Part shown: positions 59,416 through 61,280 of the stretch, piece after piece | Numbering within the stretch: position 1 is the first letter of the stretch | How the letters are laid out: each line of letters begins with the position of its first letter | Source of the DNA: a virus | DNA: 64,000 nucleotides | Virus record (IMG/VR): IMGVR_UViG_3300047496_000382 | Strand: one strand, 5' to 3' | Notes under the pieces: generated by a model | Database searches by the model: none | Seen by the model: only the letters and a program-made list of their open reading frames with translations | What the model was told of the DNA's origin: nothing | Translations under genes and position numbers: made by a program

Positions 59416-59453
59416 TCAAAAAGAAACGGGGCCAAGCAGTACGCCTGGCCCCG
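59416..59453 (-). terminator. Terminator downstream of tmRNA
   Basis: ACGGGGCCA...UGGCCCCGU followed by UUCUUUUU. Confidence 0.8.
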
Positions 59454-59476
59454 TCTACCTACTTCTTCTATTTTCG

Positions 59477-59846
59477 TGGACCTGAAGGGAGTCGAACCCT
59501 TGTCCGCAAGAGCGCTACAGAAATCTTCATTCACGTGCGTAGGGAGTCTTGACCTCTTCGGCTCCCGTGGTGCCCGTCTCTCCGGGCTGTCCACGCTCTT
59601 CTTGTTCTCCCCCACCCGAGTCAAGTGGTCCGTGTTTGCGGAGCTGGAGTTCCAGCGGAATAGCTACCCTCTGGGGTTACACCGCCGAGGCTACTGGGTG
59701 CTGTTTCACCCTGGCGATGGCTCAGGCCGCGAGGCGCTGGGCGACTTCGTTGTCGTTGGCAACTAGCGTTGCTCGAATTGAAGGATACGAGCGCCCCTTG
59801 CACGCAGACTTCCGTTCTTCTCCCACGTCGAAACCGGGACAGGCCC
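59477..59846 (-). ncRNA. ssrA: tmRNA; tag ORF 59760-59722 = ANDNEVAQRLAA*
   Basis: 5' GGGCCUGUCCCGGUUUCGAC; 3' GCGGACAAGGGUUCGACUCCCUUCAGGUCCA; G3:U70 alanine pair; UAGUU before the GCC resume codon; tag ends LAA; 370 nt. Confidence 0.95.
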
Positions 59847-59869
59847 TTTCAAGAACTACTTCTACTACT

Positions 59870-60061
59870 TCACTTCTTCTTGTCCAACTGTTTCATCAGT
59901 CGCATCTCGAGCTCGGCGAAGTCCACGCCCGTGACGACGAAGGGGTCCTTTCGTGTGAAGGCATCACGCAAGCGGCGCCCGAATTCGGTGCGCAGCGGGA
60001 GGTTCTGTAGCGCCGGCACATCGCTCACGCGGCGGCCGGTCTCGGTCACTCGAGTGCTCAT
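59870..60061 (-). CDS. 63-aa protein matching the DNA polymerase I palm segment (TGRLSS motif through motif A)
   Basis: TETGRRVSDVPALQNLPLRTEFGRRLRDAFTRKDPFVVTGVDFAELEMRLM vs Pol I [51 protein letters not shown]; TGATG-coupled to the sigma gene. Confidence 0.8.
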   Translation of the reverse strand: MSTRVTETGRRVSDVPALQNLPLRTEFGRRLRDAFTRKDPFVVTGVDFAELEMRLMKQLDKKK

Positions 60062-60849
60062 CAATCATCCTCCAGGTTCAGGCCCATGTGCTGCCGAAGA
60101 GTCGCACCCATCTGCGTCTTCAGCTTGCTCACCTGCGGCGCCGTCATGTTCATCTTCTTGGCGAGCTCGTTGGTCGAGGTGATGTGCGCGTAGCCGTTCG
60201 TGCCGAAAACGTGGTTGAAGAGTGTGTGGAGATGCGGCTGGTTCGGGAAGATGTCGGGCAGGATGTTCTGCGCGATGGCGATTTGCTGCTCCTCGAACTC
60301 GAGCGGGTGCTGCCGGCTGGTCGGGTCCGTCTCGAAGGCGCTCGAGGGAACGTCGCCGGAGCGCGCGGCCTGGATGCGGCCAACGAGCTTGGCCGAGAGT
60401 CCCATGTGCCCGCCAATCTCCTCGTGCGTCGGCTGACGACCCAAGTCCTGGCGCAGCGTGTCTTCTGCCTTGATGAGCTTGCCGATGTGTCCTGAGACAC
60501 CCTCCGGCACGTAGCCGATGTTCTGGTGGCGGTTGTTGTACCGCATCGCCTTCTGCAGCCGTGTGTGCACGTGCGTATTGAGCGCCGCCCCTCGGTTCGG
60601 GTCGTACGTCTCGAACGCCTTGATGAGGTGCTTCTGGAGCTCCGCGCGCATCGAGGCCTCGGGCACGTTCGGCGCGCGGTACTGCGTCATCTTCTGCGCG
60701 ATGACGGGCTTGTAGAGGTCGAGCAGCGGCGACAAGTCCTCGGGCTTCTTTGAGGTGCGCCACGTGTTGAGGAGCTCAATCTCGTGCTCCTTGCGATTCT
60801 TCTTCTGCGCCTCTTTGCCTTGGAGGTACTCGTTGACGGGGTTCGACAC
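60061..60849 (-). CDS. Phage RNA polymerase sigma factor (sigma70 family, FliA/SigF-like architecture)
   Basis: Region 2 AFETYDPNRGAALNTHV; region 3 LGRQPTHEEIGGHMGLS; region 4 TNELAKKMNMTAPQVSKLK. Confidence 0.85.
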   Translation of the reverse strand: MSNPVNEYLQGKEAQKKNRKEHEIELLNTWRTSKKPEDLSPLLDLYKPVIAQKMTQYRAPNVPEASMRAELQKHLIKAFETYDPNRGAALNTHVHTRLQKAMRYNNRHQNIGYVPEGVSGHIGKLIKAEDTLRQDLGRQPTHEEIGGHMGLSAKLVGRIQAARSGDVPSSAFETDPTSRQHPLEFEEQQIAIAQNILPDIFPNQPHLHTLFNHVFGTNGYAHITSTNELAKKMNMTAPQVSKLKTQMGATLRQHMGLNLEDD

Positions 60850-60857
60850 GGCGTCTC

Positions 60858-61280
60858 CTAGATGGTGAGGCTGATTTTCACGTAGTCGAGTGACTTCTGC
60901 AGCTCGAGGGTGGCGTCGAGGTACAGAGTATCCCCACGCACCTCGGCGTTCGTCACCGTGCTGCCCGGCGGGAAGAGGAAGTCCTTGGCTATGCTGACGA
61001 TGGCTTCAGAGAGCCCTGACATCTTCCCGCCGGGCAGCACGGTGACGAACGCCTCTACCGCGAGCGAGAGGGGCTCGAACGCCGGCACCATCATCTCTTC
61101 GACGCGCACCAGAGCCGCACGCTCGTCCCGCTCCTCTTCACGCTGGTCAGCGCCGCGCGCGTAGCACGCCGACGCTTCTATGCGTGGGTCCGCAAGACAA
61201 AGAAAGACCACCGGACCGTGCTGTTCAGGGGGGACCAAACATTGGTGCACGTGCCGGTGGTCGGGGTGGAACTGTACCAT
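60858..61280 (-). CDS. Hypothetical protein containing the 32-bp inverted repeat
   Basis: ORF track (refined start). Confidence 0.55.
   Translation of the reverse strand: MVQFHPDHRHVHQCLVPPEQHGPVVFLCLADPRIEASACYARGADQREEERDERAALVRVEEMMVPAFEPLSLAVEAFVTVLPGGKMSGLSEAIVSIAKDFLFPPGSTVTNAEVRGDTLYLDATLELQKSLDYVKISLTI
60945..61053. repeat. Perfect 32-bp inverted repeat with 45-bp spacer
   Basis: ggcgttcgtcaccgtgctgcccggcgggaaga (60945-60976) and its exact reverse complement (61022-61053). Confidence 0.95.

Follow-up and report, generated by a model that had tools for sequence, protein, structure and literature searches.

A 63-residue stand-alone segment of DNA polymerase I in a large phage belongs to a dispersed family of mini-PolA proteins

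What use could a phage have for a gene that encodes a short internal stretch of DNA polymerase I and nothing else of that enzyme? The question is raised by a 63-aa open reading frame (P0001) in a window of 64,000 nucleotides (G000:C1:96000-159999) from the 177-kb virus record IMGVR_UViG_3300047496_000382, which is 95% complete. The gene lies at 59870..60061 of the window on the minus strand. Its translation starts MSTRVTETGRR and ends QLDKKK* (63 codons), and it runs from motif 2 (TGR..QNLP) to motif A (D47, E52), followed by a short helix and a KKK tail. Directly upstream is the gene for a 262-aa phage sigma factor (60061..60849, minus strand; Pfam Sigma70_r3, 39 bits). The two genes overlap in the sequence TGATG, in which the small gene's ATG (60061-60059) and the sigma TGA (60063-60061) have two bases in common. 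A Shine–Dalgarno motif, GGAGG, can be read at 60069..60073 (minus strand), 7 nt before the ATG and within the last sigma codons. We infer that the protein is translated from its own GGAGG–ATG and read together with sigma. The coupled start and the lysine-rich end had both been pointed out in an earlier, sequence-only reading of this DNA, and the translation and the overlap coordinates agree with it.

The homology to Pol I is clear. Residues 3-59 match positions 113-170 of the 381 in Pfam PF00476 (DNA_pol_A) with 44.5 bits (E 1.3e-11), which passes the domain cut-off of 34.3 bits. A phmmer search against the PDB placed residues 4-62 without gaps on residues 339-397 of the Klenow chain, which correspond to Pol I 662-720 (E 4.8e-11); by our own count the two are about 45% identical over this stretch. 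In this alignment R10, Q19/N20, R24, R32, D47 and E52 fall on Pol I R668, Q677/N678, R682, R690, D705 and E710, with the Pol I numbering counted from the residue that we take to be D705 of Klenow. The gapless alignment through motif A proposed from the sequence, with its list of retained residues, is thus borne out by the phmmer alignment. The near-universal S-x-D-P-N of Pol I reads S-D-V-P-A in the phage protein. Only 15% of the polymerase domain is represented; thumb, fingers, motif B, motif C and exonuclease are all lacking. GC content by codon position is 0.63/0.42/0.81, the same pattern as in the adjoining genes. A separate Logan assembly, made from a moss metagenome run, contains the same 4.1-kb stretch with the gene and without a single difference; it does not count as an independent occurrence if that run is the source sample. 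Misassembly, which had been named as a possible reason to dismiss the gene, is unlikely because of this identical copy, even though it possibly derives from the same sample. The gene is a real, bounded open reading frame homologous to Pol I 662-720.

We next consider whether the protein could be a polymerase or a part of one. The Asp and Glu of motif A that an active family-A enzyme needs are present (D47 and E52, at D705 and E710). The fingers with motif B (R754, K758 and Y766 of the O-helix) and motif C (HDE, D882) are missing, as the protein ends 11 residues past E52. It fails the curated Pol I equivalog models by a wide margin (48.3 bits with NF004397, where 720 are required, and 43.7 bits with TIGR00593, where 600 are required). 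A PF00476 search of the whole 177 kb returned, besides the small gene, one complete 687-aa PolA (G000:C1:68954-71017, outside the window) and no other pieces. This PolA lies 85 kb away, has its own motif 2 and motif A (DYEQLEMR) and is 38% identical to the small protein. Pfam searches of the neighbouring genes found no intein, HNH, GIY-YIG, LAGLIDADG or other homing-endonuclease domain, and Rfam found no intron, in agreement with the earlier observation that no polA pieces, intron or intein signatures flank the gene.

Phage PolAs do come apart in this very region. At seven IMG/VR loci (L030, L025, L031, L047, L065, L085 and L091) an N-terminal PolA ORF of ∼ 400-450 aa stops after the RxAF helix and short of motif A. 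The one of these that was checked further (L030:1897-4210) has a 404-aa gene that carries the exonuclease and profile positions 3-149 and, 350 nt later, a 248-aa gene with the rest (profile 152-381). Another phage PolA, 1154 aa long and fused to a uracil-DNA glycosylase domain (L012:1247-4711), contains an HNH intein in motif 2, between GRN and SSHDPN, a site that coincides with the N-terminal border of the protein family described below; the same phage encodes a 61-aa member of that family 1.3 kb downstream of its intein-bearing PolA. With such cases at hand, a split family-A polymerase that has the 63-aa protein as a subunit, or a polA gene broken by an intron or intein that has it as the middle exon, gains some plausibility. 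The naturally split enzymes resemble it in that PolA sequence is divided among small genes. They differ in that their adjacent pieces sum to one enzyme and in that the break falls inside the segment that our protein spans, whereas here the segment has no complement and a whole PolA, containing the same segment but only 38% identical in it, is encoded elsewhere. Moreover, many phages with an intact PolA carry the same stand-alone form, and homing elements are absent from the neighbourhood. The split-polymerase proposal is therefore scarcely credible, and is refuted for this genome unless further pieces lie beyond the 95% that the record covers, and we conclude that the 63-aa protein is neither a polymerase nor a piece of one.

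Instead, it has relatives with the same borders. An exhaustive phmmer scan of 1.84 billion representative sequences gave 1931 hits and, together with scans of IMG/VR, yielded ∼ 20 stand-alone proteins of 53-83 aa, a few of them with C-terminal extensions. The existence of such similarly bounded homologues had been put forward as a check on the gene. We refer to them as mini-PolAs. They start at or just before TGR, end ∼ 10-15 residues past motif A and carry charged tails that are not PolA sequence; on the PF00476 profile the 63-aa protein occupies 113-170 and the other members 115-175. Most of the other short hits were broken genuine PolAs with canonical motifs, which were read and then left out of the set. 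The same broken genes dominated a profile search of near-length proteins. With the 63-aa protein alone as query, an index search of near-length proteins returned only the query and one piece from a short contig, nothing useful, and an index search of longer proteins gave no match. A pattern scan of IMG/VR added six mini-PolAs, on contigs of 8.9 kb to 206 kb. The genes sit in tight arrays of small genes with overlapping starts and stops, on phage contigs of up to 94 kb, and one mini-PolA was found identically on nine contigs from several samples. In one metagenomic phage (L005:376-843 and L006:695-1141) the mini-PolA gene lies between paralogous genes of 155 and 148 aa, which are 44% identical and have no assigned function.

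The family is also present in catalogues of phage proteins. PHROG 12116 (phrog_12116, an 81-position profile automatically labelled ‘DNA polymerase’) was the top PHROG match for all eight mini-PolAs tested, our protein and seven others, above the PHROGs of full-length PolA. For the 63-aa protein the score is modest, 31.2 bits compared with 28.3 bits for the full-length PolA phrog_17, and the PHROG is a catalogue entry only. Cultured members exist as well. An 81-aa mini-PolA gene occurs in 26 records of phiCbK-like Caulobacter phages; the phiCbK record JX100813 annotates it as ‘putative Pol I DNA polymerase, palm domain’. The phiCbK genome paper treats the T7-like polymerase and GcrA, not the small mini-PolA gene (PMC3556154). 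No publication on the family or on the small phiCbK gene came up in our literature searches. The 63-aa protein thus belongs to a dispersed phage family with common borders that includes PHROG 12116 and the phiCbK-type protein Karma gp233, and this family has already been catalogued.

Karma gp233 (YP_006989613.1, 81 aa) is a useful comparison. Like the 63-aa protein, it stands alone and covers this part of PF00476 (profile ∼ 120-170), retains P..QNIP.RTE and D..E.R, and comes from a phage that encodes a full PolA separately; in both phages the gene upstream codes for a transcription factor, to whose stop the start is coupled. It differs in its length of 81 aa with a C-terminal extension, in following a GcrA-like rather than a sigma gene, and in the absence of an adjoining tmRNA; the two proteins are about 35-40% identical. 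Karma gp233 (L068:2998-3240) is one of several longer members with C-terminal extensions, the others being P0025, whose tail is Cys-rich, P0102 and L026. At the end of the phiCbK type stands GRVHDEFSYTV, a predicted beta-hairpin with a resemblance to polymerase motif C. The GRVHDEF stretch is possibly motif C-like, with no Pfam match there; if it is motif C, the phiCbK type would be a fingers-less, ‘palm-only’ protein.

Conservation within the family is concentrated on a few positions. Among 20 mini-PolAs, P16, Q19, P22, R24 and E52 are invariant and N20, I21, T25, E26 and R54 nearly so, which gives the signature P..QN(I)P.RTE ... E.R. In the 63-aa protein P16, Q19, N20, P22, R24, T25, E26, E52 and R54 are all present, with L21 for the usual I. 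Three of the 20 lack the aligned motif-A Asp, TGR is lost in some members, and motif B is absent, so that the constraint on the catalytic Asp is relaxed in this family. Since fingers and motif B are absent, motif C is missing from the protein studied here and the aligned Asp is absent from some members, mini-PolAs as a group do not appear to be polymerases.

How the family arose can be addressed by comparison with full-length enzymes. Each mini-PolA is ∼ 40-65% identical to the other mini-PolAs and 25-42% identical to the full-length PolA of its own phage. In a leave-one-out HMM test the 63-aa protein scored 83.1 bits against the other mini-PolAs, 65.2 bits against bacterial Pol I segments and 41.1 bits against phage PolA segments; the test is conservative because the bacterial set consisted of the best matches to this very protein. 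Mini-PolAs cluster on a tree (two label changes, compared with 18.6 in shuffles), and a tree in which all 21 form one clade was 35.7 lnL units better than the free search (AU p 0.86). As the tree is built on 60 columns and is poorly resolved, the clustering and the constrained-tree result are compatible with a single origin and do not prove it. Against curated NCBI models the mini-PolAs score best with bacterial Pol I equivalogs and not with the exonuclease-polymerase type. A bacterial-type origin rests mainly on these models, because the bacterial and phage comparison sets were picked by similarity to the query or by the pattern QNIP.RT[EK]. Taken together, the data suggest that mini-PolAs may have arisen once, from the motif 2–motif A stretch of a bacterial-type Pol I, and would then have spread among large phages that already had a full PolA of their own.

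A recent origin from the host was considered and rejected, because the closest full-length PolAs in the exhaustive scan come from unrelated phyla and are only about 47-49% identical to the 63-aa protein. The sequence-only reading had offered a recently captured host fragment kept under selection as one explanation. Its ‘recent’ part does not hold, as no full-length PolA is more than 49% identical and the nearest relatives are other mini-PolAs; its ‘under selection’ part stands at the level of the family, as follows.

Selection could be measured in the phiCbK clade only, since the sole other copy of the 63-aa gene is identical to it and the G001 copy, from the nearest relative found, has diverged beyond the range of dS; copies of three mini-PolA genes from within populations were likewise all identical. 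Among five phiCbK-like phages the mini-PolA gene has a dN/dS of 0.21-0.32. For both neighbour genes the ratio is 0.44-1.07 between the more diverged phages, in pairs of comparable divergence, and 0.11-0.18 in the closest pair, Rogue and BL10. One in-frame indel of five codons was seen among the phiCbK-like mini-PolA genes. The refuting case named earlier, a lack of similarly bounded homologues together with neutral dN/dS, therefore fails: such homologues exist, and dN/dS is 0.2-0.3 in the phiCbK clade, the one clade in which the mini-PolA is shown to be under purifying selection.

These results bear on another explanation, namely that the 63-aa gene is a decaying, neutral relic of a polA that was captured or duplicated, and that it has stayed open by chance or by its position in the operon. 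Short broken PolA pieces are indeed abundant in public databases, the gene is the only member of its 90% cluster, and no variants were seen at the locus. Broken pieces keep the canonical 16-residue stretch, however, and our protein does not; its highest score comes from a family of proteins with similar borders, which is under purifying selection where this can be tested. It also has a strong Shine–Dalgarno motif and a coupled start, its coding GC3 pattern is kept despite its ≤ 49% identity to any full-length PolA, and the relative G001 retains a mini-PolA. We regard the relic as very unlikely and largely refuted.

The surroundings of the gene raise the question of whether its position after sigma matters. 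A one-piece phage tmRNA gene with the tag ANDNEVAQRLAA (59476..59846, minus strand; ARAGORN; Rfam RF00023, 94.4 bits) begins 23 nt past the mini-PolA stop, and a strong intrinsic terminator with a 15-pair stem and a T-run (59424..59456, minus strand) ends the sigma/mini-PolA/tmRNA unit. A promoter-like box, TGGACAAGA (59878..59886, minus strand), lies on the D-K-K tail codons, 31 nt before the tmRNA 5' end, and has one mismatch to GGNAYAAGA, a motif with 27 exact copies in the genome, mostly just before gene starts. The box is a possible, weak candidate for the tmRNA promoter. Two moss/plant metatranscriptome libraries, which may be a single data set deposited twice, contain a 206-nt contig identical to 59481-59686, a hint that the tmRNA is made; this contig was the only match among the RNA runs, which are uninformative either way for expression of the mini-PolA gene. 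Several repeated words were seen in this region. AGAAGAAGT(G/A)..GTAG words stand on both sides of the tmRNA (59855-59886 and 59455-59469, minus strand). AGAAGTAGT-like words are enriched sevenfold in the window (35, compared with 4.9 expected) and often fall in the interval from a GGNAYAAGA box to the ribosome-binding site. About 100 nt upstream of the sigma start, within a 187-aa ORF, lies a perfect inverted repeat of 32 nt (60945-60976 and 61022-61053, with a 45-nt spacer), at which the Logan contigs end.

The nearest relative found, the 183-kb G001, allows the locus to be compared. Its PolA is 63% and its sigma factor 50% identical to those of our phage, and the gene order around sigma is kept. 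A search with the sigma gene found no close relative in viral_contigs and only distant ones among cultured phages. At the G001 site between sigma and a 389-aa gene (L102, G001:C1:59953-63765) there is no mini-PolA, tmRNA or terminator; unrelated ORFs of 78 and 88 aa are found instead, the former coupled after sigma, and no tmRNA was detected anywhere in G001. G001 does encode a mini-PolA, of 137 aa, 24 kb from the sigma site. It is 50% identical to ours over 52 residues, so that the two have diverged about as much as the sigma factors. This comparison makes the position after sigma look like a site at which cassettes are exchanged. A general functional link with sigma was rejected as an explanation of the coupling, which is local, because G001 has another ORF in the slot. 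In the phiCbK-like phages the mini-PolA gene directly follows the gene for a GcrA-like regulator wherever the neighbour is named and in all five loci that were read, and in those five its start overlaps the GcrA-like stop. Two mini-PolAs come after a sigma or sigma cofactor-like gene, perhaps by chance. Across 14 mini-PolA loci no neighbour gene or domain is conserved that would indicate a pathway, and PADLOC gave no defence matches at these loci except a PolA-type match of 15.8 bits to one extended member.

Could the stretch then act mainly in cis, providing the tmRNA 23 nt downstream with a spacer and a promoter, while the ORF itself is incidental? The near-consensus box on the last codons, the joint absence of mini-PolA, tmRNA and terminator from the syntenic G001 site, and the fact that the RNA-library contig covers part of the tmRNA only would fit such a role. 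Near-matches with one mismatch are common, however, no tRNA or tmRNA adjoins any other mini-PolA, and membership of a protein family together with the Shine–Dalgarno motif accounts for the whole ORF. A cis role is highly improbable.

Structure prediction gave a further hint about how the protein may work. The AlphaFold2 model of the 63-aa protein, built with the family alignment, has a pLDDT of 80 and a pTM of 0.30, with a hairpin (residues 3-13) and two helices (26-35 and 48-62), that is, confident secondary structure and no compact fold. The model of the phiCbK type (pLDDT 75, pTM 0.34) adds a C-terminal hairpin. Fold searches of the 63-aa model against the PDB (Foldseek and VIA-align wide) gave nothing meaningful. 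Because the predicted monomer consists of a local hairpin and helices without a compact fold, we infer that mini-PolAs would fold on a partner or as oligomers. The net charge of the members varies from -4 to +9, which weakens the case for a general role in DNA binding.

On balance we favour, by a small margin of confidence, the reading that mini-PolAs are selected, non-catalytic binding proteins, which would act by binding rather than by catalysis. The conserved P..QNIP.RTE and E.R are the parts that selection has kept. Their equivalents in Pol I line the primer-terminus side of the cleft in Klenow structures. A mini-PolA could accordingly be a non-catalytic mimic of this conserved cleft surface and would occupy whatever docks there, either the primer 3' end or a protein that recognizes family-A polymerases, for which host Pol I contacts or an immune sensor are candidates; it would presumably act during host takeover. 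That the protein is such a mimic, competing for the primer terminus or for a protein that recognizes family-A enzymes, is a tentative proposal. It fits because bacterial Pol I models match best and the aligned catalytic Asp is not always kept. A dominant-negative mimic of host Pol I, as suggested from the sequence, may also fit in the same two respects. More speculative still is the extension that mini-PolAs are natural ‘fragment mimics’, 50-80-aa copies of the most conserved surface of Pol I that obstruct enzymes of the Pol I type in the host or keep a host sensor or defence protein from recognizing family-A polymerases, and that they represent a general class of decoys in large phages.

Binding might also serve the phage's own replication. 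A mini-PolA could be an accessory or regulatory factor of the family-A replisome of the phage, binding phage PolA or its DNA substrate and tuning replication. Every complete or near-complete genome with a mini-PolA has a separate full-length PolA (the genome studied here, G001, G003, G005, the L012 contig and the phiCbK-like phages, about five independent lineages), and several mini-PolAs lie near replication genes such as primase, RNase H or the PolA operon. This co-occurrence is weak evidence, because many large phages encode PolA anyway. Mini-PolAs are also least like phage-type PolAs and most like the bacterial Pol I models, and their distance from the PolA gene is usually large (85 kb in our phage, > 100 kb in G001). 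We consider an accessory role in the phage replisome unlikely.

We found no characterized protein that works like a mini-PolA. The motif 2–motif A stretch cannot polymerize by itself, yet it is kept beside a complete polymerase in phages of very different hosts, which points to phages turning a conserved surface of the enzyme into a small module for binding or mimicry. Inhibitory protein fragments of synthetic origin are familiar from laboratory work; if mini-PolAs are inhibitors they would provide a natural precedent, and a phage example would be new. Because some members come from cultured phiCbK-like phages, whose host Caulobacter is a genetic model, the function is directly testable. If a mini-PolA proves to be a decoy or inhibitor, it would be a new type of host-takeover or anti-defence protein.
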